This document shows positions 4,679 to 33,836 of a DNA stretch of 34,757 nt, one piece after another. The notes under the pieces were generated by a model. It did no database searches and was not told the DNA's origin. It was given only the letters and a program-made list of their open reading frames with translations. Position 1 is the stretch's first letter; every line of letters starts with the position of its first letter. Position numbers and translations under genes: made by a program. The stretch comes from a bacterium (GTDB taxonomy: Bacteria; Planctomycetota; B15-G4; JADJEK01): contig JAUIEL010000001.1 in assembly GCA_030428825.1 (NCBI GenBank), forward strand, positions 1 to 34,757. The letters are read 5' to 3'.

Positions 4679-7372
4679 TCACGTCCCGAACGTCAGCGCC
4701 AGCCCGTTCGACGTCGCGATGCCGTTCGCCGCCCCGGCGTCGAGGACCGCCGCCTGGACGAACAACGTGAACCCGGCGACGACGGGGAGGACCGGCGCGA
4801 GGCCGACGTCGAGCGTCCCCGTGCCGACGGTCCCGGGCGTGCCGCCGGTCGGCACGGTGACCGTCGAGAGCGGGAAGTCGACGTACAGGGTCGCGCCGAA
4901 GACCGGGAGGTTCGGGAGCGCCGCCTCGTTCGCGCCGAACAGGAGGACGGCCGGCGCCCCGCCCGCGCCGCGACGGAGTCGAAGGGCGGCGGTCGTCGAG
5001 CCGAGTCGCATCGGGCCGGTCGCGCCGAGGAGGGGGACGGCGCCGCCGAGGCCGGGGATCCCCGCGCCGAACTGACGGATCCCCCCGTCGCCCGCGCCGT
5101 CGAACCGTCGCGAACGGACGACGACGCGGCCGGAGAGGTCCAGGTCGCCGTCGCCGTCGACGTCGGCCGGCGGGCCCATCGCCCCGCCGGCGTACGGACG
5201 GGCGGGTTCGAACGCGCCGCCGCCGAGGCCGCGGTAGAGCAGCACGTCGCGCGGCGTGTCGCTGTGCGTGCCGGTCGCGCCGGCGAGGAGGTCGGTCACG
5301 CCGTCGCCGTCGACGTCGTCGAACGACAGGGACGTCATCGGCGGGTCGTTCCCCGCGGTCAGTCCGGTGTCGAGGACCGCGCCCGCGGTGAACCCGCCCG
5401 CGCCGTCGTTCACGTACAGCCACGTCGTCTCGCCGTACGCCTGGGAGAAGGCGAGGTCGAGGTCGCCGTCCCCGTCCTGGTCCGCGAACGTCACCGAGTC
5501 CGGGTCGAGCGACGGGACGCCGGCGTGGACCACGGTGCTCGAGAACGAGAGCCCGCCCTGGTTCGTCCAGAGGGTGAGGAACGACCAGTTGTCGACGACC
5601 GCCACGTCCGCGTCGCCGTCCTGGTCGACGTCGGCGACGGCGCTCGGCTCGTGTCCCGATCCGAACAGGTTCACGAACGGCAGGAACGTCCCGTTCCCGG
5701 CGTTCGGGTAGTACCCGCCCGGCGTCGCGTCGAGGACGTCGAGGTCGCCGTCCGCGTCGAGGTCGAACACCACGTTCGCGACGCGCGAGTACGGCGCCAT
5801 GTTCGTCGCCGCCGCGAGGCCCGCGTCGACGAACGCCCCGAGCGCGTCCCCGGCGTAGAGGCGCATCTCCTGGAACACCGGGAGCGGCAACGGCTGTCCC
5901 GGCACGAAGTGAGCGACCAGCACGTCCGGCCGGCCGTCGCCGGAGAAGTCCCCGGCGCTCACGATCCGCCGCTCGATCACGCCCGCGGGGGCCGGCGGGA
6001 GGAGGACGGCCTCCGGGAACCGGCCGGTCGCGTCGTTCAGCCGCACGCTGCCGTCGTCGAAGAAGAGGTCGACGTCGCCGTCCCCGTCGTGGTCGAGCGC
6101 GGCGATCGGCGAGGGGCTGTAGTAATGGTAGGTCACCGGCTCGAGCGACGACTCGAACGCGCCCTGCCCGTAGAACGCGCCCTGCGGGAGCGTGACGTCG
6201 AGGTGCCCGTCCCCGTCGAGGTCCGACGTCCCGATCGGCGCCGAGCCGACCCGGACGGTCTCCGCCCGGGCGACCGGCCCCGAGAAGACGTCCGTGCCGT
6301 CGTTCTCGAAGAACGCGACGATCGCCTCCGTCCCCCCGCCCGACTCCTGCCACGGGTAGTTCAGCAGGTCGGGGTCGCCGTCGCCGTCCCAGTCGCCGAA
6401 CGCGAACCGGCCGCCGAACGTCTCGCCGGTCCCCGGCGTGAGCGTGTGCGCCGCGCCGAAGACGAGCCCGCCCGCGCCGTTGAGCACCGGGACGATGTCC
6501 GTCGAGTCGCTCGAGTTCGCCTTCACGATCAGCACCAGGTCCTCGGCGCCGCCGCCGGCGAGGTCGACGACGTACGGGTCGACGCGATGGAACGTCGTGC
6601 CGGGGACCGGGACGATCGTCTCGGCGCTCGGCGCGCCGGCGACGGTCGGGAAGACGTGGAGCACCGCGCCCGAGGCCTCGCCGACGACCACGTCGTCGTC
6701 CCCGTCGTGGTCGACGTCGACCGCGACGAGCCGCGCCGGCTGCTTGAACCCGAACGGTCCGGGGAACGGGACGGTCACCGGCGCGCTCGGCACCAGGGCC
6801 CCGCCGACGACGTCGTACCAGGTCACGATCCAGGAGAAGCCGGAGACCTCGAGGGTCGCGAGCTCCATCGCGGCGTCGCCGTCGATCTGCCCGAACGCCG
6901 CGCCCCGCATCGCGCCGGTCAGGGGCGCCGAGACCGGCGGTCCGAACGTCCCGGTCCCGATCGACGGGTGGAGGTGGAGCGCGAAGTCGGTCTGGTAGTC
7001 GATCTCCTCGACGACGAACACGTCGGGCCGGGAGTCGCCGGTGACGTCGTACGTCCGGAACGGGCCGTCCTCCGAGAGCGGGCGGAACCGGTTCGAGATC
7101 AGGTTGAACGCGACGTACGGCCCGGCGCCCGGGAGGTCTCCCGTGCCGTCGTTGAACATCACCTGGAACCCCTCGTAGTGCGTCGGCGTCCCGGGCGTGC
7201 CGCGGAACCGGACCAGGTCGTCGGCCCCGTTCCCGTCGACGTCCGCGATGGCGTGGAACTCGCCGGGATCCGGGAAGACGAAGTCCCGGGCCGAGTCGAG
7301 GTGGTCCTGGGCGCCGGCGGGCGACCCGAGGGCGAGGAGGAGGACGAGGGGGGGGATCGAGGAGCGGAGCAT
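4679..7372 (-). CDS. Secreted FG-GAP/VCBS repeat protein (about 14 units, possibly two beta-propellers) with the shared C-terminal domain
   Basis: Signal peptide MLRSSIPPLVLLLALGSPAGAQD. There are about 14 DxDxDGxxDh units (ADVDGNGADDLV, VDVDHDGDDDVVVG, GDWDGDGDPDLL, SDLDGDGHLDV, LDHDGDGDVDLFF, FDLDADGDLDVL, ADVDQDGDADVAVV, ADQDGDGDLDLAF, DDVDGDGVTDLLAG, ADVDGDGDLDLSG ...). The last ~130 aa (nt 4682-5071) end in ..FVQAAVLDAGAANGIATSNGLALTFGT. Confidence 0.85.
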   Translation of the reverse strand: MLRSSIPPLVLLLALGSPAGAQDHLDSARDFVFPDPGEFHAIADVDGNGADDLVRFRGTPGTPTHYEGFQVMFNDGTGDLPGAGPYVAFNLISNRFRPLSEDGPFRTYDVTGDSRPDVFVVEEIDYQTDFALHLHPSIGTGTFGPPVSAPLTGAMRGAAFGQIDGDAAMELATLEVSGFSWIVTWYDVVGGALVPSAPVTVPFPGPFGFKQPARLVAVDVDHDGDDDVVVGEASGAVLHVFPTVAGAPSAETIVPVPGTTFHRVDPYVVDLAGGGAEDLVLIVKANSSDSTDIVPVLNGAGGLVFGAAHTLTPGTGETFGGRFAFGDWDGDGDPDLLNYPWQESGGGTEAIVAFFENDGTDVFSGPVARAETVRVGSAPIGTSDLDGDGHLDVTLPQGAFYGQGAFESSLEPVTYHYYSPSPIAALDHDGDGDVDLFFDDGSVRLNDATGRFPEAVLLPPAPAGVIERRIVSAGDFSGDGRPDVLVAHFVPGQPLPLPVFQEMRLYAGDALGAFVDAGLAAATNMAPYSRVANVVFDLDADGDLDVLDATPGGYYPNAGNGTFLPFVNLFGSGHEPSAVADVDQDGDADVAVVDNWSFLTLWTNQGGLSFSSTVVHAGVPSLDPDSVTFADQDGDGDLDLAFSQAYGETTWLYVNDGAGGFTAGAVLDTGLTAGNDPPMTSLSFDDVDGDGVTDLLAGATGTHSDTPRDVLLYRGLGGGAFEPARPYAGGAMGPPADVDGDGDLDLSGRVVVRSRRFDGAGDGGIRQFGAGIPGLGGAVPLLGATGPMRLGSTTAALRLRRGAGGAPAVLLFGANEAALPNLPVFGATLYVDFPLSTVTVPTGGTPGTVGTGTLDVGLAPVLPVVAGFTLFVQAAVLDAGAANGIATSNGLALTFGT

Positions 7373-7406
7373 CCGGAGGCCTCCAGCGGAGCGCGGCGAA
7401 CGGGCC

Positions 7407-7448
7407 GGGGAAAGACGGAGCGCGGAGTCGGTGGCCGACCCCGCGCTC
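7407..7448 (-). terminator. Candidate intrinsic terminator downstream of the ELWxxDGT-repeat gene
   Basis: On the minus strand the RNA reads GAGCGCGGGGUCGG-CCA-CCGACUCCGCGCUC (8 bp + G.U + 5 bp stem, 3-nt loop), followed by CGUCUUUCCCC. It starts about 55 nt after the stop at 7504 and lies upstream of the next minus-strand gene. The U-tract is short, as is common in high-GC genomes. Confidence 0.4.
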
Positions 7449-7503
7449 GATCTTCACCGGAACGACCCGTGAGGGTTCAGACTCCTCGGCGAGAAACTCC
7501 GGA

Positions 7504-10500
7504 TCAAGGGCCGACGACCACCTCCAGGCCGGGCGAGCCGACCAGGATCCCGCCGCCGACGGTCGAGAGGGCCTGGACGACGGCCCGCGTCCCGACGAGG
7601 CCGGCCGGGACGGGGGACGAGAAGGTCAGCTGGCCCGTCGCGTCGCTCGTCCCCGGCAGGCCGACGAACGGTCCCGCCACGTGGAGCCGCTCGCCGCCGG
7701 GGAGGAGGAGGTCCGTCGGCGCGGCGCCGACCAGGAGGAGGACCGGGCTCGAGGGCGGGAGGTCGGTCACGCCGAGCGCGAGGGTCTGCCCCGCCACCGG
7801 CGGCTGGACGGCCGCGAGGGTCGGCGCGGTCTCGCCGGCCGGCGCGAAGCCGGCCCCGAACGGCTCCGCCGCGTGGTCGCCGAACGCGGCGAGCGGCAGC
7901 GCGTGCAGCTCGTCGCCGTGGTCGGCGTCGTCGGCGACGAAGAAGACGGTCCCGCCGACCCGCACGAGGTCGTGCGGCGAGGCGTCGAGCGGTCCCGGAG
8001 CGATGTCGGCGACCAGCGTCGGGGCGGCCGCGGAGCCGTCGCTCACGAACAGCTCCCGCCCGAACTCCGCGTTCCACGCGCCGAACGCCATCTTCCCGCC
8101 CGACCCGGGCGCGGCGAAGACGGCGGGGTAGATCGGCTCGAGGTCGCCGTTCAGCCGCCACGTTCCGGCCGTCGTCCCGTCGGTCCGCCAGAAGTCCCAC
8201 TCGCCGCTCGTGTTCCCGGTGGCGAAGAAGGCGAGGTCGCCGGCCCGGTGCAGTCCGGAGATCGGGTCGTTCGGCCCGAGCGTCGCCAGCACCGTCACCC
8301 CCTCCGGCGAGGCGGCGTCGGTCACCAGGAGGCGGTGTCCGTTCGTGGAGTCGTGGACGTGGAGCAGGGCCTCGTCGTCCCCGAACGGCTCGACGTCGTA
8401 GAGCGTCGTCGTGACGCCGCCCTTCGTCAGGTCGGCGACGACCCGCGTCCCCGCCGCCGTCCCGTCCGTCGTGAAGAGCTCGAAGCCGAGCACGGGGTCG
8501 GTCGCCTGGAACCAGGCTCGCGTGTCGGTCGCGGCCCGGAACGCGTTGAAGATGCCGCTCTGGACTCCCGGCAGGATCTCCGTCAGGAGCGTCGGCGGGA
8601 CGGTCGGGTCGTCGGTGACGAACAGCTCGATCCCGGTGGCGGGGCTGCCGGCGATCAGGAGGAGGCGCCCGCCGACGACCTTCATGTCGACCGGCGAGAG
8701 CGGCGCGACCGTGTGGGTCCCCTCCGGAGTCCCGTCGGTCACGAACAGGCTGCCGAAGAACGTCGGGTCGAGGGCTCCGAACAGGAGACGGCCGCCGAAG
8801 ACGGCGCGCGGGGTCTCGCCCCAGACCGAGTCGCCGGGGCCGGTGAAGACGTCCAGGAGGAGGGCCGTCCCCTCGGGCGTCCCGTCGGTGACGTGCGGCT
8901 CGAACCCGAACGGGCCGGACGCGAAGAAGAAGAGGCGCTCTCCGAACGGCTCGAACGACCCGAAGGTGGTCGACTCCGGTCCCGGGCGGAACGAGATCAC
9001 GCGCTCCGTGCCGGCGGCCGTGCCGTCGGAGATCCAGAGCTCGCGTCCCTCGACCTCGTCGGCGGCGGTGAAGAAGAGGCGGTCGCCGACCCGCGTCAGC
9101 TGCTCCGGGTCGGAGGACGCGGTCAGGGCCCCGACGGCGAGGTCGGCCAGCAGGGTCGTCCCCGCCGTGGTGCCGTCGCTGATCCACGGTTCGGCGCCGT
9201 GGACCTCGTCCTCGCCGGAGAAGAGGAGGCGGTCCCCGAAGGCGGCGAGCGGACCGACCGCCGTGATCGTCGCTCCCGGGGAGACGTCCTTCACCAACGT
9301 CGTCCCCGCCGCGGTGCCGTCGGTCACCCAGACCGCGACCCCGTGCGCGCCGTCGTTCGCGAGGAAGTAGAGCTTCCCGCCCAGCGTGATCCCGCGGCTC
9401 GGGTTCGACGAGCCGGAGGACGGCGAGATGTTCGCCACGAGCTTCGTCCCGGCGGTCGTGCCGTCCGTCGACCAGAGCTCGCGCCCCTCGTTCCAGGTCA
9501 GCGCGCTGAAGAGGTAGCGGGTGCCGAGCGCGCCGACCGGCAGCGGCTCCGATCCGAAGACCGCGCCCGGGAAGACGTCGGCGACCGGGAACGTGCCGCT
9601 CGCGTTTCCGTCGGTCACCCAGAGCTCGCGGCCGATCGCGGGGTTCACGGCGGAGAAGTAGACGACGTCCCCGACCCGGAACAGGCCGGTCGGCGCCGAC
9701 CCGGCCCCGCCCGGCGCGATGTCCTTCAGGACGCTCGTCCCCGCCGCGGTCCCGTCGCTCCGCCAGAGCTCGGAGCCGAGGGCGGGATCGACGGCCCGGA
9801 ACAGCAGGACCCCGCCGGCGTCGGTCAGCTCCTCGAGCGGCTGGAACGCGCCGTGCGTGATCAGCTTCACGGCGGCGGTCCCGCCCCCGGTCCCGTCGCT
9901 CCGGACGAGCACGTGCCCCGACGACGGGATCGGCGCGCCGAAGTAGAGGAACCCGCCGGAGGCGCAGAGCTCGCCGCCGGCCACGCCGGCCGCGCCGGGG
10001 AGGAGGTCGATCACGAGCTGGGTGCCGGCGACCGTCCCGTCGGTCCTCCAGAGCTCGACGCCGTGCGTGCCGTCGTTCGCGAAGAAGTAGACCGCGCCGC
10101 CGAACGCGGTGAACTCGCTCGGGTTCGAGGTCGCCGGTCCCGGTCGGAGGTCGCCGAGGGAGAACGTCCCGGCCGCGGTCCCGTCGCTCCGCCACGGCTC
10201 ACCGCCGGCCTCGAAGACGACCACGCCGCTCGGCAGCGCCGTGAACCCGTTCGGCGACGACGACGTCGGGCCGGGGGAGATGTCCTTCACCAAGACGGTC
10301 CCGGCCTCCGATCCGTCGGTCGCCCAGAGTTCGGACCCGAAGACGTCGGTCGCCGCGAAGTAGGCGCGGCCGCCGGCCTCGGCGAAGCCGCTCGGGCTCG
10401 ACGAGGCGGTCTCCGCCGGGGGCGCGGTGTTGATGTCCTCGACGAGCGTCTGGCCGACGAGCGGCGCGGTGGCCGCCAGTCCGAGGGCGAGGGGGAGGGC

Positions 10501-10524
10501 GGAACGGAGCACGGTGGGTCGCAT
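7504..10524 (-). CDS. Secreted ELWxxDGT-repeat protein (about 17 repeats) with the shared C-terminal domain
   Basis: Signal peptide MRPTVLRSALPLALGLAATAPLVGQ. The unit of ~50-55 aa recurs: GSELWATDGSEAGTVLVKDISPG, GVELWRTDGTVAGTQLVIDLLPG, GSELWRSDGTAAGTSVLKDIAPG, GRELWVTDGNASGT, GRELWSTDGTTAGTKLVANISPS, GRELWISDGTAAGTERV, GFELFTTDGTAAGTRVVADL, GRELFVSDGSAAAPTLVADIAPG and others. This matches the pattern I recall for the ELWxxDGT repeat family. The last ~118 aa (nt 7507-7860) are the shared C-terminal domain. Confidence 0.85.
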   Translation of the reverse strand: MRPTVLRSALPLALGLAATAPLVGQTLVEDINTAPPAETASSSPSGFAEAGGRAYFAATDVFGSELWATDGSEAGTVLVKDISPGPTSSSPNGFTALPSGVVVFEAGGEPWRSDGTAAGTFSLGDLRPGPATSNPSEFTAFGGAVYFFANDGTHGVELWRTDGTVAGTQLVIDLLPGAAGVAGGELCASGGFLYFGAPIPSSGHVLVRSDGTGGGTAAVKLITHGAFQPLEELTDAGGVLLFRAVDPALGSELWRSDGTAAGTSVLKDIAPGGAGSAPTGLFRVGDVVYFSAVNPAIGRELWVTDGNASGTFPVADVFPGAVFGSEPLPVGALGTRYLFSALTWNEGRELWSTDGTTAGTKLVANISPSSGSSNPSRGITLGGKLYFLANDGAHGVAVWVTDGTAAGTTLVKDVSPGATITAVGPLAAFGDRLLFSGEDEVHGAEPWISDGTTAGTTLLADLAVGALTASSDPEQLTRVGDRLFFTAADEVEGRELWISDGTAAGTERVISFRPGPESTTFGSFEPFGERLFFFASGPFGFEPHVTDGTPEGTALLLDVFTGPGDSVWGETPRAVFGGRLLFGALDPTFFGSLFVTDGTPEGTHTVAPLSPVDMKVVGGRLLLIAGSPATGIELFVTDDPTVPPTLLTEILPGVQSGIFNAFRAATDTRAWFQATDPVLGFELFTTDGTAAGTRVVADLTKGGVTTTLYDVEPFGDDEALLHVHDSTNGHRLLVTDAASPEGVTVLATLGPNDPISGLHRAGDLAFFATGNTSGEWDFWRTDGTTAGTWRLNGDLEPIYPAVFAAPGSGGKMAFGAWNAEFGRELFVSDGSAAAPTLVADIAPGPLDASPHDLVRVGGTVFFVADDADHGDELHALPLAAFGDHAAEPFGAGFAPAGETAPTLAAVQPPVAGQTLALGVTDLPPSSPVLLLVGAAPTDLLLPGGERLHVAGPFVGLPGTSDATGQLTFSSPVPAGLVGTRAVVQALSTVGGGILVGSPGLEVVVGP
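7887..10407 (-). repeat. Coding tandem-repeat region: about 17 degenerate ELWxxDGT-type units of roughly 150-165 nt (approximate boundaries)
   Basis: The xxDG[TS]xxGT core recurs periodically through the 1006-aa protein (ELWATDGS, EPWRSDGT, ELWRTDGT, VLVRSDGT, ELWRSDGT, ELWVTDGN, ELWSTDGT, AVWVTDGT, EPWISDGT, ELWISDGT, EPHVTDGT, SLFVTDGT, ELFVTDDP, ELFTTDGT, RLLVTDAA, DFWRTDGT, ELFVSDGS). The units are diverged at the DNA level and are not identical repeats. Confidence 0.75.
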
Positions 10525-10651
10525 CGAAGGGGTCCTTTCGGCGGGACGCGGAGTCGCGCGGGCGGTGCGGTCTTCGGGCGGCGACAGCGGTGCGCGCGCC
10601 CCTCCGGAGAGACCCTCGGCGACGCGGCGCTTGCACCCCGTCCCCCGGGTC

Positions 10652-11713
10652 TCAGCCGCCGGCCCCCTTCGCGTCGTCCCGGAACGAGTCGACGTGGGCG
10701 GACCACGCCTTCTCCAGCGCCCGCGCGAGGCCGTCCTGGAGGATCAGGATCCCCGTCCCCGAGAGCCCCTCCTTGGTCAGTTCGTCGAGGAGCTCGTCGC
10801 GGAGCCGCTTCGCGCGCCGGTCGGTCAGCAGGACGTCGATCACGGCCTCGGCCCAGGCGTCGTTCGACACGGTCGACGAGAGCGGCTGCCCCTCCCACGA
10901 GTTCTCGTTCAGGCGGAGGAGCCGATCGAGCGGCGGGGTCCAGTCCGAACGCGCCGACCCGAGGTGCGCCACGATCGCGGCCCGGCCCGGCGAGGCCGCG
11001 CTCCGCCGCGCGAACGCCTCCTTCCCCGGCGCGTGGACGTCCCACGACCGGAACCACTCCGCGGTCCCCTGCTCGAACCAGGCGGCGACGTGCGGTCTCC
11101 CGACCATCCCGATCACCACGGCCTTCGCCGCCTCCGCGCGGATCGCCGGGAGGTTCAGGTCGGTGAACGCCGGGTCGTCGTTCTCCTCGACGTAGGTGTA
11201 GAGGTGATTGTCGAGGATCTTGATGCGGTGCCGGCTCCGCCCCTTCGGCTCGGGGATCGCCTCGTAGCTGAGGCTCGCCCCGGACCGCATCGGCGCCGCC
11301 TCCTGGAACGCGGCGCGCGACGCGAAGACCTTCAGCGTCGGGCACTCCGCGAACTGGCGCTTGGCGTCGAACCGCTCCAGCACCGACTCCTCGAACGCCT
11401 CGAGGTAGACCCCGAGCTCGGCCGCCAGGCGCGCGGATCCGTACGTGTCGACCTTCCAGTTCGTCTCGGAGAGGCGGAACCGGCCGTCCGCGCCCTCGAC
11501 GACCTCCCGCTCGAGCTTCCGGATCCGCCGCTCCTCCTTCTTGTCGAACGCCCACTCCCGGTCGAACGCGAACGGGGATCGCTCGAACGACGTCGCGTCG
11601 TCGGGGTCGGGCGCCTCCTCGTCCGCCGCGGCCGGCGGGGCGTCCGCCGGCGGGGGAGGGTCCTGGGCGGCGACGAGGGCGAGGAGGAGCGGCAGCGGGG
11701 AGGGGGACGACAT
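10652..11713 (-). CDS. Hypothetical secreted protein (no family recognised)
   Basis: The internal ATG at 11713 gives MSSPSPLPLLLALVAAQDPPPP, a plausible signal peptide. The 93 upstream codons of ORF 10652..11992 are Arg/Ser-rich and overlap the divergent RidA gene start region. The remainder has normal amino-acid composition (..WFEQGTAEWFRSW.. with no HExxH). Function unknown. Confidence 0.6.
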   Translation of the reverse strand: MSSPSPLPLLLALVAAQDPPPPADAPPAAADEEAPDPDDATSFERSPFAFDREWAFDKKEERRIRKLEREVVEGADGRFRLSETNWKVDTYGSARLAAELGVYLEAFEESVLERFDAKRQFAECPTLKVFASRAAFQEAAPMRSGASLSYEAIPEPKGRSRHRIKILDNHLYTYVEENDDPAFTDLNLPAIRAEAAKAVVIGMVGRPHVAAWFEQGTAEWFRSWDVHAPGKEAFARRSAASPGRAAIVAHLGSARSDWTPPLDRLLRLNENSWEGQPLSSTVSNDAWAEAVIDVLLTDRRAKRLRDELLDELTKEGLSGTGILILQDGLARALEKAWSAHVDSFRDDAKGAGG

Positions 11714-11822
11714 GGGGCGCCTCCGGGGGCGGCGGGAGGTCGATCGTACCGGTCGAACGTGCCCGGAGGCGATCGGCCGCCGCGCGGGCTGGTAGCCTTC
11801 CGGGACCTCCCGGAGAGACAAG

Positions 11823-13391: not shown

Positions 13392-13403
13392 CCCGGCGCC
13401 CGG

Positions 13404-16840: not shown

Positions 16841-17010
16841 GGCGCGGAGGATACCGAAGCGACGCAGGGGATGCCGGCGGGGGGCGGCGGAGGCGCGGCG
16901 CGGTCCGGGGCGATCCGCGAGAAAACGTCGGAATTCCCTGCCCCTCCGCCGGCGAACCTCGCGGGTCGGTTCGAACCGAGAACGATCCCCACGGACACCG
17001 GAGATTCGTC

Positions 17011-23889: not shown

Positions 23890-24097
23890 GCGGGCAGTCC
23901 GTCGAAGAGGTGGCGTGCGGAGGCGGGGTCGGCGCGACCCCGCGCGATTCCCTCGGCAGGAGGATAGACCACAGGATAAGAGTCGAGACGACAGGCGCGC
24001 AACTCGTCCGATCGCGCTCGCCGCGCCGGAGCGGGGGATTGCGCTAGACCCTGAGTCACAATCTACTTGTGTGGGTCGCTCGAGGAGCGGGTCGGTT

Positions 24098-24113
24098 CGG
24101 CACGGCGTCTGCC
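24098..24113 (+). promoter_or_regulatory. Candidate sigma-54 (-24/-12) promoter of rtcBA
   Basis: cGGCAC-ggcgt-cTGCc matches TGGCAC-N5-TTGC at the invariant GG and GC with correct spacing (8 of 10 consensus positions). It ends 32 nt upstream of the rtcB ATG and is divergent from the GAFTGA-containing activator rtcR. Confidence 0.6.
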
Positions 24114-24144
24114 TGAGTCCCGGCGATACCTGACCCCCCGCCCG

Positions 24145-25404
<1,260 letters not shown>

Positions 25405-25406
25405 CG

Positions 25407-26444
25407 ATGGTGAACGACGCCGACCCGATCACGATCGACGGCTCGCGCGGCGAGGGTGGAGGGCAGGTCCTCCGCTCGGCGCTCGCGCTCTCCGCGGTGA
25501 CCGGCCGGCCTTTCCGGATCACGAGGATCCGGGCCGGCCGGCGAAAATCGGGCCTCCTGCGGCAGCACCTGACGGCGGTCCGGGCGGCGGCCGTGGCCTG
25601 CGGCGCGACGGTGGAGGGCGCGACCCCCGGCTCGGGCGAGCTGTCGTTCGAGCCGGGGCCGCCCGTCCGGGTCGAGGACCGCTTCTCCGTCGGGACCGCG
25701 GGCTCGGCGTGCCTCGTGTTCCAGACCGTGCTGCCGATCCTCCTCGTCGCGCCCGGCCGATCGCGCGTCGTCTTCGAGGGCGGGACGCACAACCCGGCCG
25801 CGCCGACGTTCGAGTTCCTCGCCCGCGCGTTCCTGCCGATCGTGCGACGCATGGGAGCGAAGGTCGACGCGACGCTCGAGCGACCCGGCTTCTTCCCCGC
25901 CGGCGGCGGTCGGTTCGTCGTCGAGGTCGCCGGCGGGGAGCCGCTCCGCCCGCTCGAGTTGGAGACGCGAGGGAAGGTCGTCGGTCGGCGGGCGTGCGTG
26001 CGCGTGGCGAACCTCCCCGATCACGTCGGCGAGCGCGAGCTTCGAGTCCTGCGGAGCAAGCTCGGGTGGCGCGACGAGGAGATCGGCATCGAGAGGTGCG
26101 ACGCGCTCGGACCCGGGAACGTCGTCTCGATCGAGGTCGAGGCCGAGCGCGTCGCCGAGGTCGTGACGTCGTTCGGTGCGCTCGGCGTGAAGGCGGAGGT
26201 CGTCTCGCGGCGGGCGGTCGACGGGGTGCGGCGGTACCTCGCCGCCGACGCGCCCGTCGGCGAGCACCTGGCCGACCAGCTCCTGCTCCCGCTCGCGCTC
26301 TCCCGCGGCGGGCGCTTCCGGACCGTCGCCGTCACGCCGCACTGCTCGACGAACGCCGCGGTGATCGAGCGGTTCCTTCCGGTCGCCATCTCGTTCGGGG
26401 ACGGGGGCGACGGCGCCGTGGCCGTGGAGGTCGCGCCCCGCTGA
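25407..26444 (+). CDS. rtcA: RtcA RNA 3'-terminal phosphate cyclase
   Basis: ITIDGSRGEGGGQVLRSALALSAVTGRPFRITRIRAGRRKSGLLRQHLTAVRAA. The C-terminal GEHLADQLLLPLAL contains the candidate adenylylated His. The ATG lies 2 nt after the rtcB stop. Confidence 0.93.
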   Translation: MVNDADPITIDGSRGEGGGQVLRSALALSAVTGRPFRITRIRAGRRKSGLLRQHLTAVRAAAVACGATVEGATPGSGELSFEPGPPVRVEDRFSVGTAGSACLVFQTVLPILLVAPGRSRVVFEGGTHNPAAPTFEFLARAFLPIVRRMGAKVDATLERPGFFPAGGGRFVVEVAGGEPLRPLELETRGKVVGRRACVRVANLPDHVGERELRVLRSKLGWRDEEIGIERCDALGPGNVVSIEVEAERVAEVVTSFGALGVKAEVVSRRAVDGVRRYLAADAPVGEHLADQLLLPLALSRGGRFRTVAVTPHCSTNAAVIERFLPVAISFGDGGDGAVAVEVAPR

Positions 26445-26473
26445 GCGAAGGGACGTTCCCTCCGTTCAAACTG

Positions 26474-26625: not shown

Positions 26626-26648
26626 ACGAATGGGATGCCGGTCCGGAG

Positions 26649-27536
26649 GTGTTCGTGACGCAGGAAAAGGTCCGTCGGCGCGAGAGGTCCGCGCCCGTCG
26701 GGCGCAACGACGATTGCCCGTGCGGCAGCGGTCGGAAGTTCAAGCGCTGCTGCCGCGAGGGTGCGGGCCGCCCCGCGGCGTCCCCCGTCGCGCCGTCGGC
26801 GCGTCCGACGCCGACCGGCGGGCCGCCCCCCCCGGCGCCGGGGGCGGCGGACGCGATCGTCCCCCCGCTCACGCTGGTCCTGGCGTTCTGCAGCATCGTC
26901 TACGAGCTGCTGCTCGGGCAGGCGCTCTCCGCGTTCCTCGGGAACACGGTCCTCCGGTACAGCGTCACCATGGGGCTCTACCTGGTCTCGATGGGGATCG
27001 GCGCGATGCTGGCCCAGGCCCGCGTCCTCGCGCGCCCGGTCGTCTCGTTGCAGATCGTCGAGCTCGCCCTCACCGTCCTCGGCGCGGGGGCGGTGCTGCT
27101 CCTCTGCGTCGCCGACGCGGCCGGCGTCCCGGGGCCGCTGTTCTGGCTCCTCGCGCACGGTCTCATCGTGTCGATCGGCGTCCTCTCCGGGCTCGAGATC
27201 CCGCTGCTGATCGAGCTCCGTTCCCGCCACGACCCCCACGCCGCGAGCGGCGTCCTCGGCGTCGACTACGTCGGCGCGTTCCTGGGGACGGTCACGTTCG
27301 CGTTCTTCTTCTATCCCCGCCTCGGCCTGATCCCGACGACGTTCGTCGTGGCCGCGCTGAACGCCGCCGTCGGCCTCTCCCTGGGGGCGTTCCGCCGCCG
27401 GGTCGAGCCGTCCGTCCGGCCCCGGCACCGCCGGCTGCTGGGGGTCCAGGCGGCGCTCCTGCTCGTCCTCGTCGGCTGCATCGTCGCGGCTCCCTCCATC
27501 AACGAGTTCAGCCTTGACCTGTACCTGGATCGCTGA
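26649..27536 (+). CDS. Membrane protein: N-terminal SEC-C zinc-binding motif fused to a spermidine-synthase-type N-terminal transmembrane domain, with no catalytic domain
   Basis: The SEC-C motif CPCGSGRKFKRCC lies at nt 26715-26753. It is followed by a Pro/Ala linker and about 6-7 TM helices (LVLAFCSIVYELLLGQALSAFLGNTVLRYSVTMGLYLVSMGIGAML ...). These helices align with the N-terminal membrane domain of the 27909..29858 product. The start is GTG 26649 or GTG 26655, with GGAGG at 26645-26649. Confidence 0.75.
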   Translation: MFVTQEKVRRRERSAPVGRNDDCPCGSGRKFKRCCREGAGRPAASPVAPSARPTPTGGPPPPAPGAADAIVPPLTLVLAFCSIVYELLLGQALSAFLGNTVLRYSVTMGLYLVSMGIGAMLAQARVLARPVVSLQIVELALTVLGAGAVLLLCVADAAGVPGPLFWLLAHGLIVSIGVLSGLEIPLLIELRSRHDPHAASGVLGVDYVGAFLGTVTFAFFFYPRLGLIPTTFVVAALNAAVGLSLGAFRRRVEPSVRPRHRRLLGVQAALLLVLVGCIVAAPSINEFSLDLYLDR

Positions 27537-27912
27537 GTCCCCTCCCGCCGCCCCGGCGCCGACCGACGTCGTCGGGCGCCACCTGTTCGCCGAGCTCCTG
27601 CGGTGCGCGCCGGCCCGGATCGCGCGCGTCGACACCGTCGTGGCGGCGCTGAAGGCCGGCGTGGCCGCCTCCGGCGCGACCCCGCTGGAGGTGACGTCGC
27701 ACCAGTTCGAGCCGTACGGCGTGACGGCGGCGATGTTGATCGCCGAGTCGCACGTCGCGGTGCACACCTGGCCGGAGCGGCGCTACGTCGCCGTCGACTT
27801 CTTCACCTGCTCGGCCGACATGGACGCCGACCGGGGCCTGCGCGTGATGGCCGAACGGTTGGGCGCGGAGAAGGGCGTGCTCCGGGTCGTCGAACGCGGA
27901 GTCTCGGGATGA
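27514..27912 (+). CDS. speH: S-adenosylmethionine decarboxylase proenzyme, small pyruvoyl-dependent prokaryotic type (SpeH/SpeD)
   Basis: GRHLFAELLRC..GATPLEVTSHQFEPYGVTAAMLIAESHVAVHTWPERRYVAVDFFTCS, with the self-cleavage E|S site in AESH and the HTWPE motif. The only in-frame start I can find is TTG 27514, which overlaps the upstream gene by 23 nt, so the start is uncertain. Confidence 0.85.
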   Translation: MTCTWIAESPPAAPAPTDVVGRHLFAELLRCAPARIARVDTVVAALKAGVAASGATPLEVTSHQFEPYGVTAAMLIAESHVAVHTWPERRYVAVDFFTCSADMDADRGLRVMAERLGAEKGVLRVVERGVSG

Positions 27913-29858
27913 GCGCGTCTCCGCCGAACCGCTCGCACCTCGCGGACGCCGTCCTCCCGCGTCGGGAGTCCGACGCGGCCCGGCCCCGCGCGCCGACCGC
28001 GGTGTTCGTGCTCGCGGTGACCCTGTCGGCCTGCAGCATCCTGTACGAGCTCCTGATCGCGCAGACGATGGCGATGCTCGCCGCGAACACCGTCGTCTGG
28101 TACTCGATGGTGATCGGCGCCTTCCTCGGGGCGATGGGGCTCGGGGCCTGGTGGAGCCGGCGGCTCGGTCGGCGCGGGCCGTGGCCGACGCTGGTGCGGA
28201 TCGAGCTCGCGCTGACGGCCCTCGGCGCGGCGGTCGTGCCGCTCGTGCACCTCGGCCACCTCGGCTACGCGCGCTGCACGCTCACGGGGCAGGCCGGCCT
28301 CGCGATCGCCTCGTTCTACGGAGGAGCGGCGCTGCTGGTGATCGCGATCGGCGTCCTCACGGGCGCCGAGCTCCCGCTCCTGATGCGGATCGCCCGGGAG
28401 GACCGCGCCGACCGGGGGGTCGAGAACGTCGTCCTCGGTCTCGACTACTTCGGCTCGCTGGTCGGGGCGGTCCTGTTCCCGCTGGTCCTCCTCCCCGCGC
28501 TGCCGCTCTCGGCGATCGGCTTCGGCGTCGCGCTCGTGAACCTCGTCTCCGCGGCGGTCGTCTCGACCTTCGTCGTCGCGGGGCGCCGCGCGCGGTGGCT
28601 GTCGCGGCTCGTGATCGCCGGCCTCGCGGTGACCCTCGTCGCCGGGTTCCTGCACCTCGGTCGGATCGAGCAGTACCTGCTGAAGCGATACTACTACTAC
28701 GACCAGCTCGCGGGCGGGTTCGGGGTGCTCGCGCCGCGGGACGACCTGCCCGACGTCCTCCGTTCCAGCTCGCCGTACCAGAAGATCGACCTCGTGCGAC
28801 GCGTCGAGACCGACTTCTCGGTCGGGCTGATGCCGGCGTACAGCGACAAGCTCGCGCGTCACCCCGGCTTCCCGGTCGACCAGGTCCTGTTCCTGAACGG
28901 CGACTACCAGACGGACACCCGCTACGAGGAGGTGTACCACGAGTGGTTCGCGCACGTCCCGATCGTGGCGAACGGCCGGCCGCCGAGGGACGTCCTCCTC
29001 CTCGGCGGCGGCGACGGCTTCCTGCTCCGCGAGCTGGTGAAGTACGACGCGATCGAGTCGATCACGCACGTCGACATCGACCCGACGCTGATCGAGCTGG
29101 CGAAGACGAACGACGTCCTCCACCGCGCGAACCGCGACGCGTTCCGCGACCCGCGGCTCGACTCCCTCGTCACCGACGGCTACCGGTTCGTCCGGGAGTC
29201 GGAGCGGACCTTCGACGCGATCTACATCGACTTCCCGGTCGCGGCGGACTACGACCTCGCGAAGCTGTACAGCCGCGAGTTCTTCCACTTCGTGCGGCGA
29301 CGGATCGCGCCCGGCGGCTTCGCGGTCTTCGACTCGACCGGGACCAGCCACCTCACCACGCCGAACGAGGACGGCGAGCGCTGGATCTCGCCCGCGAACG
29401 ACTGGTCGATCTACTACCACACCCTCCGCCGGGCCGGGTTCCCGACCATCGTGCCGTACCTCACGACGCTCGAGCTCGACAACCAGGAGGCGCGGGAGGC
29501 GGTCCTGTCGCAGATCGAGATCGAAGGGGAGGTGGCGGCGCTCGAGGCGATCGACGACCCGGCGGAGCGCGAGGCCGAGCGGCGGCGGATGCTCTCGGAC
29601 GTCGTCGACCGGCTGATCTACTCGCACGTCATCTCGCTCGAGCAGGGGTTCGTGCTGCTCGCCCCGGAGGAGCGGGAGTTCTCGACCGAATGGACCGATC
29701 TCGGCGTCGATCTCCACCTGCTCGACGCGGAGCGGTTCGCCCTCGCCTTCGACGTCGAGTTCCCGAAGCCGTCCGCCGTCGACCCCGCGCAGGTGAACTC
29801 GATCATGCGCCCGACCTTCCCGACGCTGCCGTGGTGGCGGCCGCGCCTGCCGTTCTGA
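27909..29858 (+). CDS. Membrane-anchored spermidine-synthase-like polyamine aminopropyltransferase with a ~150-aa C-terminal extension
   Basis: The ATG overlaps the speH stop (ATGA at 27909-27912). The N-terminal multi-TM domain reads LSACSILYELLIAQTMAMLAANTVVWYSMVIGAFLGAMGLGAWW... The aminopropyltransferase core reads SSPYQKIDLV, LFLNGDYQTDTRYEEVYHEWFAHVP, VLLLGGGDGFLLRELVKYDAIESITHVDIDPTLIELAK, DAIYIDFP and LYSREFFHFVRRRIAPGGFAV. Confidence 0.82.
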   Translation: MSASPPNRSHLADAVLPRRESDAARPRAPTAVFVLAVTLSACSILYELLIAQTMAMLAANTVVWYSMVIGAFLGAMGLGAWWSRRLGRRGPWPTLVRIELALTALGAAVVPLVHLGHLGYARCTLTGQAGLAIASFYGGAALLVIAIGVLTGAELPLLMRIAREDRADRGVENVVLGLDYFGSLVGAVLFPLVLLPALPLSAIGFGVALVNLVSAAVVSTFVVAGRRARWLSRLVIAGLAVTLVAGFLHLGRIEQYLLKRYYYYDQLAGGFGVLAPRDDLPDVLRSSSPYQKIDLVRRVETDFSVGLMPAYSDKLARHPGFPVDQVLFLNGDYQTDTRYEEVYHEWFAHVPIVANGRPPRDVLLLGGGDGFLLRELVKYDAIESITHVDIDPTLIELAKTNDVLHRANRDAFRDPRLDSLVTDGYRFVRESERTFDAIYIDFPVAADYDLAKLYSREFFHFVRRRIAPGGFAVFDSTGTSHLTTPNEDGERWISPANDWSIYYHTLRRAGFPTIVPYLTTLELDNQEAREAVLSQIEIEGEVAALEAIDDPAEREAERRRMLSDVVDRLIYSHVISLEQGFVLLAPEEREFSTEWTDLGVDLHLLDAERFALAFDVEFPKPSAVDPAQVNSIMRPTFPTLPWWRPRLPF

Positions 29859-30009
29859 GCGGGCGCCGCGGACCGCCGAACCCGCGACGACGGACGCTGG
29901 GGCGGCCGCTCCCCGGCGAGAACCTCCCCCCGGGCCCGAGACTTCCCGTATCCTCGCCGCCGAGGGAACTCGCCGCCGCCGGGCCCTCGGGGGCCGTCCA
30001 GGAGAAGGA

Positions 30010-31722
30010 GTGTCCGTGAGGTACCATCCGCCGCGCGCCGCCGCCGTGTTCGCCGTCGTGTTCGCCGTCTCGACCGTCCCCGCCTTCGGTCAGGTCTCGC
30101 TCCACTCGATCGTCGACGAGGGGGCGGCCGACCTCACCGGGAGCGAGGTCGCGGGCCTCGGCGACGTCGACGGCGACGGGCGCGCCGACTTCGCGATCGG
30201 CTCGGGCGGGGTCTCCCACGCCGGGCGGATCGAGGTGCGTTCCGGCGTCGACGCGTCGCTCCTCCACTTCTTCCTCGGTCCCGCGTCGGGAGACGTCATG
30301 AGCCGGGTCGCGGGACCCGGCGACGTCGACGGCGACGGCGTCCCGGACGTGCTCGCCGGCGCTCCCTCGAACGACCACCACGGGGACGCCGCGGGGAGCG
30401 CGCGGGTCCACTCCGGGGCGACCGGCGCGCTCGTCGTCGTCCTGTACGGCGACGCGGCCGGCGACTCGTTCGGCAGCGCCGTCGCGGGGGTGGGGGACGT
30501 CGATCAGGACGGCTTCCGCGACTTCGCGGTCGCGGCCTCCGGCGACGACGACGGCGGCGACCAGGCGGGGAGCGTCCGCGTGTTCTCCGGACAGACGGGG
30601 GCCGCCCTGTTCACTCTCCACGGCTCGTCCGCGTTCGCCTCGTTCGGTTGCTCGATCGACGGCGCCGGGGACGTCGACGGCGACGGCGTCGACGACCTCG
30701 TGATCGGCGAGTGCCACGGGAACGCCGGCGGCGGCAACTCCGGCCGCGTCGCGATCCACTCCGGCGCCGGCGGCGCGCTCTTGCGCTCGTTCGCGGGCGC
30801 TCCGGCCGACCAGCTGGGCCAGTCGGTCGCCGGCGCGGGGGACGTCGATCAGGACGGGCACGCCGACGTGATCGCGGGCGCGATCCTCGCCGACGTGAAC
30901 GGTCCGACGTCCGGCGCGGTGAACGTCTTCTCCGGGAAGGACGGATCGACCCTCTTCCTGCTGCCGGGCGCGGGACCGGACGACCGCCTCGGCTGGCGGG
31001 TGACCGGCGGATTCGACTTCGACGGGGACGGCCGGCTCGACGTCGGCGCCTCCTCGCCGTACGCGGACGCCGGCGGCGGCGAGGTCGGCATGGCGCGCGT
31101 CTGGTCGGGGGTCGACGGATCGATCCTCCAGTCGGTCCTCGGGGAATCGTCGCTCGCCGACTTCGGCGCCGCGCTCGCGTTCACCGGCGACCTCGACGGC
31201 GACGGGCGGAGCGACATGGTGGTCGGCGAGCCGCGGTTCCAGACCGCCACCTTCGACCGCGGGAGGGTGCGCGTCTTCGTCGGTCTCCCCGCGTCGTGCC
31301 CGAACCTCCCCGGGAGCCTCGATTTCAGCCACGACGGCGTCCCCGACGCCTGCCAGGTCTGCCAGCCGGACCTGACCGGCGAGGGGCCGGGCAACATGAA
31401 GCTGAAGGTCTGCGGCGACGCCCTGACCACGGCGGGGAGCGTCGCGCGGCTCGCGGTGTCGAACGGCACCCCCGGCGTCCCGGTCTTCCTGCTCGCCGCG
31501 CTGACGAACCAGCCGACGGAGCTCCTCGGCGGGACGGTCCTTCCGTGGCCGGACCCGGCGGTCGTGGCGGCGACGCTCGACGGGAGCGGTCGGTTCCTGA
31601 TCGACGTCGCCGGCGGCGCCGGCGTCCCGGTCAAGGTGTACGTCCAGGCGGTCGCGCCGTGGCCGGGCGGGCCGTTCGAGGCCGAGCTCTCGGGCGCGAC
31701 CGCGGTCACGATCGGAACCTGA
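30010..31722 (+). CDS. Secreted 7-blade FG-GAP beta-propeller protein with the shared C-terminal domain
   Basis: The start is GTG 30010 or GTG 30016, after GGAGAAGGAG. Signal peptide ..AAAVFAVVFAVSTVPAFGQ. Blades: GDVDGDGRADFAIG, GDVDGDGVPDVLAGAP, GDVDQDGFRDFAVAASGDD, GDVDGDGVDDLVIGE, GDVDQDGHADVIAGA, FDFDGDGRLDVGASSP, GDLDGDGRSDMVVGEP. The last ~114 aa (nt 31378-31719) end in ..YVQAVAPWPGGPFEAELSGATAVTIGT. Confidence 0.85.
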   Translation: MSVRYHPPRAAAVFAVVFAVSTVPAFGQVSLHSIVDEGAADLTGSEVAGLGDVDGDGRADFAIGSGGVSHAGRIEVRSGVDASLLHFFLGPASGDVMSRVAGPGDVDGDGVPDVLAGAPSNDHHGDAAGSARVHSGATGALVVVLYGDAAGDSFGSAVAGVGDVDQDGFRDFAVAASGDDDGGDQAGSVRVFSGQTGAALFTLHGSSAFASFGCSIDGAGDVDGDGVDDLVIGECHGNAGGGNSGRVAIHSGAGGALLRSFAGAPADQLGQSVAGAGDVDQDGHADVIAGAILADVNGPTSGAVNVFSGKDGSTLFLLPGAGPDDRLGWRVTGGFDFDGDGRLDVGASSPYADAGGGEVGMARVWSGVDGSILQSVLGESSLADFGAALAFTGDLDGDGRSDMVVGEPRFQTATFDRGRVRVFVGLPASCPNLPGSLDFSHDGVPDACQVCQPDLTGEGPGNMKLKVCGDALTTAGSVARLAVSNGTPGVPVFLLAALTNQPTELLGGTVLPWPDPAVVAATLDGSGRFLIDVAGGAGVPVKVYVQAVAPWPGGPFEAELSGATAVTIGT

Positions 31723-31742
31723 AGCGAACGGAGGACCACGAG

Positions 31743-32774
31743 ATGCGCGCTCGATTCGCCGTCCTCGCCGTCGCCCTGCTGTCGCCCCTCCCGTCGGCCG
31801 TCGCCGCCCCCCCGCGCGTCGTGGTCCCGAACGTCCACGAGACATTGGAGGGGGCGCTCGACAACGCCTACCCGTACCGGTTCACCGCCGGCGCCGGGCG
31901 CTACCAGCAGGCGTTCGCCGCGTCCCAGTTCCCCGGACCGATCGTGATCGGCGAGATCGCCTATCGGTACCTGCACGACGAGCCGAACGGGAAGGCGCCG
32001 GCGGATTTCAAGATGACGCTGTCGTACAGCGCGTCGCCGTGGGACGCGCTCTCGCCGACGTTCGGCGCCAACGTCGGCCCCGGCGCGACCGTGGTGTTCG
32101 ACGGCGTCTGGACGATCAAGAAGTTCTCGGGGGATCCGCTCACGCCGAACCGGTTCGCGCAGCGCCTCGTCCTCACCAAGACGTTCCTCTACGACCCGTC
32201 GCTCGGCGACCTCCTGATGGACGTCGAGATGCGGTCGTCGGCCTTCCCGCTCGGCGTCGGGACGGGCGCGTTCGAGGCGACCGGCACCGCGCCGGGCGTC
32301 GGTCGCGTGTTCGCGAACGACGGGAACCCGACCAGCCCCGTCGGGGTGTTCGTGAAGACGGGCCTCGTCACCGAGTTCACGGCCTCCGGCGTCCTGGAGG
32401 TCGGGAGCGGGTGCCCCGGGAGTCAGCCGTCGGCGCCGGAGCTCGGATGGTTCGGGGCCCCGCTCCCCGGCGCGCAGGTCTCGCTCCTCCTCTCGAACGG
32501 GCTCGGCGGCGCCGCCTCGGTCACGCTCGTCGGCGCGGGGGCGGCGTCGGTCCCGATCGGGGACGGCTGCGACCTGCTCGTCTCGCCGCCGGTCCTGCCG
32601 CTCCTCGTCCCGCTCGGCGGCAGTGGGCCGGGCGCCGGCACGTACTCCCTGCCGGCGGTGATCCCGCCGACCGCGCCGTCCGGCACGATCCGGATGCAGG
32701 CGTTCGTCGCCGACCCCGGCGGTCCGATCGGGCTCTCCGCCACCCAGGGGCTGGCGATCACGATCGGCCCCTGA
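31743..32774 (+). CDS. Secreted protein: unnamed ~200-aa N-terminal domain (RYQQxFxASxFPG signature) + shared C-terminal domain; tandem paralog 1
   Basis: GGAGG lies 8 nt upstream of ATG 31743, and the gene starts 20 nt after the preceding stop. Signal peptide MRARFAVLAVALLSPLPSAVAAP. The N-domain reads VVVPNVHETLEG..YPYRFTAGAGRYQQAFAASQFPGPIVIGEIAYRY..PADFKMTLSYSA..GATVVFDGVWTI..YDPSLGDLLMDVEMR. The C-terminal domain is at nt 32403-32771. Confidence 0.8.
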   Translation: MRARFAVLAVALLSPLPSAVAAPPRVVVPNVHETLEGALDNAYPYRFTAGAGRYQQAFAASQFPGPIVIGEIAYRYLHDEPNGKAPADFKMTLSYSASPWDALSPTFGANVGPGATVVFDGVWTIKKFSGDPLTPNRFAQRLVLTKTFLYDPSLGDLLMDVEMRSSAFPLGVGTGAFEATGTAPGVGRVFANDGNPTSPVGVFVKTGLVTEFTASGVLEVGSGCPGSQPSAPELGWFGAPLPGAQVSLLLSNGLGGAASVTLVGAGAASVPIGDGCDLLVSPPVLPLLVPLGGSGPGAGTYSLPAVIPPTAPSGTIRMQAFVADPGGPIGLSATQGLAITIGP

Positions 32775-32801
32775 CCCCCCGGGCGACCGCGTCGGGGTAC
32801 G

Positions 32802-33836
32802 ATGGCCGGCATGTCGAACCACCGAACCGTCGCCCTCCTCGTCGCCCTCGCCTTCCCGTCCGCCCCGGCCCTCGCCGGCGTCGTCGTGCCGAACCAGTAC
32901 GCCGCCGCCGAAGGGATCGGCAACAACAGCTTCCCGTACCGGTACGTCTCCGGCGCGGGGCACTACCAGCAGAGCTTCTCCGCGAGCGAGTTCCCGGGCG
33001 CCATGGTGATCACCGAGATCGCGTACCGGTACTTCGACGACAACGCCGCCGCCGCCGCGCCCGCCGACTTCAAGATGACGCTGTCGTACTGCGCGACCGG
33101 CTGGAACACGTTGAGCGCGACGTTCGCGAACAACGTCGGCGCCGGCGCGACCGTCGTCTTCGACGGCGTCTGGACCATCCCCGCGTTCGCGGGGGACCCG
33201 GGGGCGCCGAACCCGTTCGACCAGCGGCTGAAGCTGACCACGCCGTTCACGTACGACCCGGCGCTCGGCGACCTGCTGATGGACATCGAGATGCGGGCCT
33301 CGACCTACCCGGGCGGCGGCCTCGCGGGGGCGTTCGCGTCGTCGGCGTCGGGGATCGGGATCAACCGCGTCTACCGGGACGATGGCAACCCGACCTCCAC
33401 CAGCGGCACGGTGTCGGCGTACGGGCTGATCACCGAGTTCGTCGCCGGCGACATCGAGCCTTACGGCGACGGCTGCCCGGGCGCGGGGCAGCTCGTGCCG
33501 CAGCTCTCGTGGACCGGGGCGCCGATCCTCGGGGGGCAGGTCGCGCTCTCGCTGGCGAACGGCCTCGGCGGCGCGCCGTCGGTCACGCTGATCGGCGCGA
33601 CCGCCGCGTCGACGCCGATCGGCGGGACGTGCTCCCTCCTGGTCGCGCCGCCGTTCCTTCAGCTCTTCATCCCGCTCTCGGGGAGCGGCCCCGGCGGCGG
33701 CGCGTACACGCTCCCGGGCCTCGTCCCGCTCTCCTCGCCGCTCGGGACGATCCGCCTGCAGGCGTTCGTCGCCGACCCGACCACCCCGGTCGGCGTCTCC
33801 GCCTCGAACGGACTGGCGGTCACGATCTCGGCGTGA
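32802..33836 (+). CDS. Secreted protein: same N-terminal domain + shared C-terminal domain; tandem paralog 2
   Basis: Signal peptide ..HRTVALLVALAFPSAPALAG. It is co-linear with the preceding gene over its full length (VVVPNQYAAAEG..FPYRYVSGAGHYQQSFSASEFPGAMVITEIAYRY..PADFKMTLSYCA..GATVVFDGVWTI..YDPALGDLLMDIEMR). An identical 21-nt stretch, ttcaagatgacgctgtcgtac, occurs in both genes. The C-terminal domain is at nt 33462-33833. Confidence 0.8.
   Translation: MAGMSNHRTVALLVALAFPSAPALAGVVVPNQYAAAEGIGNNSFPYRYVSGAGHYQQSFSASEFPGAMVITEIAYRYFDDNAAAAAPADFKMTLSYCATGWNTLSATFANNVGAGATVVFDGVWTIPAFAGDPGAPNPFDQRLKLTTPFTYDPALGDLLMDIEMRASTYPGGGLAGAFASSASGIGINRVYRDDGNPTSTSGTVSAYGLITEFVAGDIEPYGDGCPGAGQLVPQLSWTGAPILGGQVALSLANGLGGAPSVTLIGATAASTPIGGTCSLLVAPPFLQLFIPLSGSGPGGGAYTLPGLVPLSSPLGTIRLQAFVADPTTPVGVSASNGLAVTISA

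Follow-up and report, generated by a model that had tools for sequence, protein, structure and literature searches.

A shared C-terminal beta-sandwich domain on diverse secreted proteins of Planctomycetota, a candidate sorting or anchoring tag

Introduction

Why would secreted proteins with unrelated bodies end in one and the same domain? This question is raised by a stretch of planctomycete DNA of 34,757 nucleotides (contig JAUIEL010000001.1 of assembly GCA_030428825.1, positions 1 to 34,757; hereafter, the window). Seven of its open reading frames (ORFs) combine a signal peptide and one of several N-terminal regions, here called passengers, with a homologous C-terminal domain, here called the tail. 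We report that the tail is a real homologous module of a very large, previously unnamed family, describe its predicted fold, position and distribution, and weigh whether it might direct its passengers to a common destination.

Results

Seven proteins of the window share one C-terminal domain

The seven ORFs have the translations and coordinates given in the initial annotation. The window has a GC content of 71-76%, and coding frames were set by third-position GC (GC3); all seven ORFs lie in those frames. Their N-termini are signal-peptide-like, with a basic residue, an uncharged hydrophobic stretch and an AxA-like site. By BLASTP, tails of non-paralogous proteins matched each other pairwise with E values as low as 1e-4 to 6e-9, while those of two paralogs with a passenger that we call RYQQ were 60% identical (E 2.6e-45).

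Because similarity in high-GC translations may be compositional, we built an independent profile from 143 representative tails. None came from the window, and wherever one of them aligned with a window tail over more than 80 residues, the identity did not exceed 60%. The profile matched all seven tails at 19.6-128.7 bits, while the best of 1,400 composition-matched shuffled tails reached 13.8 bits. The most divergent tails were those of 30010..31722 and 7504..10524, the former still matching the tail of 17011..18696 by BLASTP (E 5e-6). Translations, BLASTP and profile thus bore out the initial claim of seven signal-peptide-bearing ORFs with a homologous C-terminal segment; significant alignment was obtained for every tail in profile scoring, and the nucleotide boundaries first proposed were reproduced within a few codons. 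A six-frame scan of the window gave no eighth copy, the domain being confined to the seven ORFs. These are listed below with the scores and residues of the independent profile match.

4679..7372, minus strand: signal peptide, FG-GAP repeats (Pfam FG-GAP_3 and FG-GAP) and tail at 4682..5071 (75.3 bits, residues 768-895 of 897)
7504..10524, minus strand: signal peptide, 17 ELWxxDGT repeats (TIGR04534, E 9e-192) and divergent tail at 7507..7860 (29.6 bits, residues 889-987 of 1006, profile positions 1-104 only)
12291..13391, plus strand: small secreted protein with signal peptide, passenger without a Pfam or NCBIfam match and tail at 13029..13388 (68.3 bits, residues 247-364 of 366)
17011..18696, plus strand: signal peptide, FG-GAP propeller (Pfam FG-GAP) and tail at 18349..18693 (66.3 bits, residues 447-560 of 561)
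30010..31722, plus strand: signal peptide, FG-GAP propeller (Pfam) and the most divergent tail at 31378..31719 (19.6 bits, residues 469-568 of 570)
31743..32774, plus strand: signal peptide, RYQQ passenger (from translation and passenger alignment) and tail at 32403..32771 (123.3 bits, residues 221-341 of 343)
32802..33836, plus strand: signal peptide, RYQQ passenger with PEP-CTERM-tagged homologues and tail at 33462..33833 (128.7 bits), the one modelled below

The domain belongs to a large family without a database entry

Word-indexed homology searches with tail alignments returned only 4 and 11 matches, as Gly-rich words saturate the candidate list. With these searches swamped, an exhaustive profile search was needed. 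Using HMMER against 1.84 billion cluster representatives, we obtained 14,065 matches at E<=1e-3 and 4,590 at E<=1e-10. The best 150 of the 14,065 were looked at; the counts below refer to the best 146 true representatives. One top match, P0005 (4,571 residues, with 31 weak stretches), was rejected as a case of internal tandem copies: it has no match to the independent profile and a very different composition.

The initial annotation had left the domain unnamed, and profile searches of Pfam, NCBIfam and PDB agree. Over the tails of the seven window proteins, Pfam-A (2025 copy) and NCBIfam (June 2026) gave no match at E<=1. Among 93 full-length relatives searched at E<=1e-3, none of the families listed (for Pfam, the 25 most frequent) covers the tail, and a profile search of PDB sequences returned only noise (best E 1.2). 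We likewise found no description of the domain in the literature.

The tail is predicted to form a disulfide-stapled sandwich

For the tail of 32802..33836 (124 residues, 10-sequence alignment), AlphaFold2 (AF2) yielded a confident model, with a mean predicted local distance difference test (pLDDT) score of 95.5 and a predicted template modelling (pTM) score of 0.87. The model is an all-beta, two-sheet sandwich of about ten strands without any helix of four or more residues, which places the tail in the generic immunoglobulin-like (Ig-like) sandwich class as far as the prediction goes. The full-length protein, modelled from 9 sequences, had a pLDDT of 52 overall and below 50 for the tail. Foldseek searches of PDB and BFVD with the tail model retrieved generic sandwiches only (TM-scores 0.31-0.53, E>=2.8e-3), the nearest being CARDB, NPC2/ML lipid-binding domains, cores of lytic polysaccharide monooxygenases, the Wzt O-antigen-binding domain, FN3 and phage tail-tip Ig-like domains; no specific structural relative, that is, no match at E<=1e-3, was found in either database.

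Across the 143 representatives, conservation is strongest in a motif at the passenger/tail junction, YGxGCxGSGGxxPxL. P13 and Q101 never vary, D106 is conserved in 99% and several glycines are almost invariant. We consider the junction motif a candidate recognition or processing site, which is speculative.

Cysteines are gained and lost in pairs. C5 and C57 occur together in 99 of the 146 representative tails, with C57 lacking C5 in a single case, and a cysteine at most 15 residues upstream of the junction motif accompanies C20 in 86 of the 146. This pattern indicates two disulfides, and therefore a domain that would fold outside the cytoplasm under oxidising conditions. The same pattern places the likely start of the domain about 10 residues N-terminal to the first conserved block delimited in the initial annotation. 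Together, model and covariation portray the tail as a probable extracytoplasmic Ig-like all-beta sandwich of about 125-135 residues, stapled by up to two disulfides.

These data also decide whether there is a domain at all. Chance alignment is conceivable between Gly/Ala/Pro-rich translations of 74% GC DNA, and the composition of the window (71-76% GC), the yield of just 4 and 11 matches from the word-indexed searches and the spurious P0005 among the top matches of the exhaustive search would all suit such an account. It fails to explain why an independent profile parts all seven tails from 1,400 shuffles, why GC3 confirms the coding frames, why the AF2 model is confident, or why P13 and Q101 are invariant, D106 almost so and the cysteines covary. 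Profile, model and covariation refute chance similarity, which we give next to no probability.

Tails are terminal, single and joined to diverse secreted passengers

In 143 of the 146 top representatives, the tail ends no more than 5 residues from the C-terminus. A six-frame scan of 43 related loci and the window, which is unbiased for position, gave the same picture: in 67 of 70 copies, 0-4 residues lie between the tail and a stop codon. Of the three exceptions, two are truncated where the contig ends, and the other one is the ELWxxDGT tail, whose local alignment stops 19 residues early. There is always one tail copy per protein. The exceptions among the representatives are P0080, with 7 residues after the tail, P0117, with 34, and P0093, which contains the only clear internal copy and shows that the domain tolerates a C-terminal extension.

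Signal-peptide-like N-termini were called by a crude heuristic in 99 of 114 representatives that have at least 250 residues and a Met start; several of the other 15 look like mis-called starts. Passengers were diverse, with 93 representatives matching 46 Pfam families, among them FG-GAP types (21), BNR/sialidase-like domains (8) and DUF4394 (8) as well as subtilase, TIG, malectin and beta-helix families. The passenger can be very short, as in P0003 with about 60 residues ahead of the tail. Thus, the association first noted in the window, of an extreme C-terminal tail with signal peptides and unrelated passengers, holds almost always in the wider family.

NCBIfam matches of passengers included 'choice-of-anchor Z', 'choice-of-anchor NxxGxxAF repeat', the PEP-CTERM protein ScyF, an LPXTG-anchored peptidase and lipoprotein families. 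'Choice-of-anchor' is a label for passenger types that combine with different C-terminal anchors.

The tail occupies the position of PEP-CTERM on a homologous passenger

The RYQQ passenger offered a direct comparison. Using the N-terminal RYQQ region of 32802..33836 alone as query, we found homologues with two kinds of ending. P0161 and P0162 (335 residues) share the terminal beta-sandwich of the window proteins. P0164, P0165 and P0167 (232-236 residues) carry PEP-CTERM (PF07589), and the C-terminus of P0166 combines a VPEP-like motif with a hydrophobic stretch and basic residues; these four are short PEP-CTERM proteins of other organisms. In both groups, the passenger closes with a conserved GL[IV]T.F, and either PEP-CTERM or the beta-sandwich begins a few residues on. 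From this shared start point, the tail therefore fills the slot of an established sorting signal on a homologous passenger: PEP-CTERM in P0164-P0167, the tail in the window proteins, P0161 and P0162. Sequence comparison of this kind, together with the 'choice-of-anchor' passengers, newly supports a sorting-tag logic. Within 453 kb of host-lineage loci, a simple regular expression detected no PEP-CTERM-like C-termini in this small sample, compared with 70 tails.

The RYQQ passenger itself (31743-32402 and 32802-33461; about 190 residues) is without a Pfam or NCBIfam model and represents a further unnamed domain of surface proteins.

Tail genes cluster in high-GC Planctomycetota genomes

We scanned one genome per Genome Taxonomy Database species with a single 9-residue seed peptide, GCAGSGGFV, taken from 9 closer tails. 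All 43 confirmed loci lie in metagenome-assembled genomes (MAGs) of Planctomycetota, except for one contig in a 'Candidatus Aquidulcis' bin from the same-sample assembly as one of the MAGs. The host MAGs are high in GC and include JB042 and others labelled Phycisphaeraceae, Phycisphaera or unclassified Planctomycetota. A JB042 fragment is 95% identical to one window tail, and the window comes from a close relative of this MAG.

Copies are numerous and grouped. One MAG (CAZYQW01) has at least 12 in the roughly 86 kb sampled, and JB042 has 8 in 23 kb; a single 8.7-kb contig of JB042 (L001) holds four tail genes, and L009 and L019-L022 have three or four. Clusters of 2-4 tail genes per 6-12 kb are common in other MAGs, as in the window. 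This clustering suggests local duplication or co-regulated surface-protein islands.

Neighbouring genes and the search for machinery

The other genes of the window are as follows.

2..1150: response-regulator/Hpt protein
1226..2401: hybrid histidine kinase
2575..3471: AraC regulator
3572..4663, plus strand: secreted S41 peptidase (tail-specific/C-terminal-processing family) with signal peptide and IRBP-type N-domain
10652..11713, minus strand: secreted protein with signal peptide, no tail and no Pfam match
13404..16280, minus strand: Ser/Thr kinase with TPR repeats
16277..16840, minus strand: extracytoplasmic function (ECF) sigma factor, PF07638
18776..20203: HD-domain (HD_5) protein
20213..22153, minus strand: 646-residue protein without a Pfam match, directly downstream of the HD_5 gene
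22264..26444: RNA-repair genes RtcR (sigma-54 activator, minus strand), RtcB and RtcA, unrelated to the tail finding
26649..27536: SEC-C-motif protein
27909..29858: 649-residue protein with a spermidine-synthase domain
33900..34607, minus strand: 235-residue protein without a Pfam match

Judged by their translations, the products of 26649-27536 and 27909-29858 appear to be multi-pass membrane proteins. The three ORFs without a Pfam match lie in coding frames.

When neighbours of tail genes were clustered across the related loci, only pairs of an ECF sigma factor and a Ser/Thr kinase recurred. The window pair sits between two tail genes, with a 170-bp divergent region (16841-17010) separating the ECF sigma gene from the tail gene 17011..18696. 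The same pair follows the tail gene for P0161 directly, on its downstream side, in another MAG (L044, 11090-14463; L045, 5727-6964), and similar pairs are found near tail genes in L014, L030, L020 and L027. ECF-sigma/Ser-Thr-kinase pairs are abundant in Planctomycetota. We rejected them as sorting machinery; they may be dedicated regulators of tail genes.

The S41 peptidase gene 3572..4663 is convergent with the tail gene 4679..7372, at a distance of 15 bp. The initial annotation had held that the window encodes no candidate sorting enzyme. None was found, and the statement stands with the footnote that a peptidase of the C-terminal-processing family adjoins one tail gene. A role of this enzyme in tail processing is conceivable, but it was rejected since the gene is not recurrent near tail genes in other loci.

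The peptidase bears on a further interpretation, in which the tail is a module that serves structure or maturation. It could be a folding aid within the molecule, a spacer or a PPC-like pre-peptidase extension that helps secretion or folding, is later removed and sets no destination. Such a module could well be C-terminal, compact and disulfide-stapled, could occur on subtilases and other enzymes besides propellers, and might have an adjoining secreted peptidase as its processing enzyme. Several points speak against this: neither PPC (PF04151) nor another family in Pfam matches the tail in sequence, one folding aid is unlikely to serve more than 40 unrelated folds, passengers can be as short as that of P0003, and the S41 gene is not among the recurrent neighbours. 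We consider a maturation module improbable.

Discussion

A possible role as a cargo tag

By analogy with established systems, the tail may be a common sorting or anchoring 'cargo tag' for secreted proteins, a reading that we hold to be about evenly poised between right and wrong. Given the signal-peptide-like N-termini, tail-bearing proteins would be exported through Sec. The tail would then fold and become oxidised outside the cytoplasm, in the periplasm, as the covarying cysteines suggest. Finally, it would decide the post-Sec fate of the passenger, being recognised so that the protein is transferred to the outer membrane or cell surface or retained there. In such a scheme, the tail would fill the slot that PEP-CTERM, the C-terminal domain (CTD) of the type IX secretion system (T9SS) or LPXTG has in other lineages. 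Recognition by a translocon with T9SS-like logic, processing at the junction and plain binding to an envelope component are all options for the last step.

Several observations weigh against a cargo tag. The generic Ig-like sandwich fold is equally compatible with ligand binding. The last residues of the tail are not conserved, P, G, Q and E being the commonest. In P0093, a metagenomic subtilase of 863 amino acids, the tail lies internally at residues 522-647 and is followed by about 216 residues, and in P0117, it is followed by 34. No sorting enzyme or translocon was identified among the remaining window genes, three of which have no Pfam match, and when neighbours were clustered in 44-45 related loci, nothing that recurred was a translocon, a sortase-like enzyme or a receptor. 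In addition, the picture of a lineage-restricted family expanded in Planctomycetota rests on one seed peptide and the best 150 of 14,065 matches.

Some of these points favour the main rival explanation, in which the tail is a passive binding module of the carbohydrate-binding, Ig-like adhesin or lectin type. It would bind either an external substrate or some polymer in the envelope of its own cell, need no dedicated machinery and be C-terminal by modular architecture. The generic fold with its uniformly weak Foldseek neighbours, the lack of a machinery gene in the window and the 44-45 loci, the internal copy in P0093 and the many adhesin-like propellers among the passengers are compatible with such a module. 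Binding modules are, however, usually found at either end of proteins, internally or in tandem, while the tail is single and terminal in 67 of 70 and 143 of 146 cases. Its conservation peaks at the junction motif rather than at a surface patch of the sandwich, and the same passenger bears a bona fide PEP-CTERM signal at the same position in other organisms. We view a passive binding module as possible but on balance unlikely.

Returning to the cargo-tag reading, a stronger version of it would posit an undescribed, Planctomycetota-specific pathway by which proteins exported through Sec, folded and disulfide-bonded, are moved onto the outer membrane or across it. The tail would be the analogue of the T9SS CTD in this pathway, with unrelated machinery and possible processing at YGxGCxGSGG. 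We advance this version tentatively, as a proposal that is doubtful at present.

The question matters because protein delivery to, and retention on, the unusual envelope of Planctomycetota is poorly understood. If the tail is indeed a tag, it would provide a bioinformatic definition of the surface or secreted proteome for the lineage, a possible portable tag for surface display, and a handle on the responsible machinery through phylogenetic profiling. Exosortase, rhombosortase and myxosortase were all found by such profiling. A heuristic of this type was described in the PEP-CTERM/EpsH paper (PMC1569441). Even if the tail proves to be a mere binding module, a family of this size merits a name and a model, which would improve the annotation of MAG proteins now called 'hypothetical' or 'FG-GAP repeat'.

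Comparison with known systems

In working logic, the closest analogue of the tail appears to be the T9SS CTD of Bacteroidota (PF18962/TIGR04183; type B, TIGR04131). Both are single folded Ig-like sandwiches, in the case of the tail by prediction, at the extreme C-terminus of Sec-exported proteins; both occur on diverse passengers in many copies per genome, with cargo genes dispersed and unlinked to machinery. As on T9SS cargo, the tail is present as a single terminal copy on signal-peptide-bearing proteins with varied passengers. There are differences as well. The tail has no sequence match to any T9SS CTD model in Pfam or NCBIfam, in line with the initial annotation, which had seen no resemblance to T9SS CTD signatures. 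The T9SS CTD comprises 7 strands in roughly 80-100 residues, whereas the tail, at about 125 residues with about 10 strands, is larger. The top 50 Foldseek PDB matches of the tail model include no T9SS CTD structure, and nothing resembling the T9SS core components PorK/L/M/N, Sov and PorU/V is encoded in the window. To our knowledge, no T9SS is known from Planctomycetota.

PEP-CTERM (PF07589) is alike in its position on homologous RYQQ passengers, its lineage-specific expansion and its C-terminal location on signal-peptide-bearing proteins. It is a tripartite signal of about 25-30 residues composed of a motif, a transmembrane helix and a basic cluster, whereas the tail is predicted to be a soluble beta-sandwich of about 125 residues. 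The last 10 residues of the tail contain 0-1 lysines or arginines versus 3 in the PEP-CTERM homologues. Kyte-Doolittle hydropathy was not used, as it does not separate Ala/Val/Leu-rich beta tails from PEP-CTERM transmembrane segments. With no tripartite motif, no Pfam or NCBIfam match, no helix in the model and hardly any terminal basic residue, the tail is not of the PEP-CTERM, LPXTG or GlyGly-CTERM type, as had been proposed from the translations, and it likewise lacks a MYXO-CTERM-type tripartite signature.

SLH, CWB2, PPC and dockerin resemble the tail in that one module is found on many secreted proteins and may serve retention on an envelope component or scaffold. None of them matches the tail in sequence, and the tail is not alpha-helical as SLH and dockerin are. 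SLH and CWB2 are typically present as triplicates, at either end of a protein. Generic Ig-like, ML (NPC2, MD-1) and CARDB sandwiches have the same fold class as the tail and provide its best Foldseek neighbours, but PDB TM-scores of only 0.31-0.48, E values of at least 2.8e-3 and identities of 7-20% allow no specific relationship to be claimed. Measured against these systems, the tail is best described as a cargo-tag-like C-terminal domain that has no sequence relationship with those already known, occurs in a phylum without a described equivalent and has a function that we infer by analogy.

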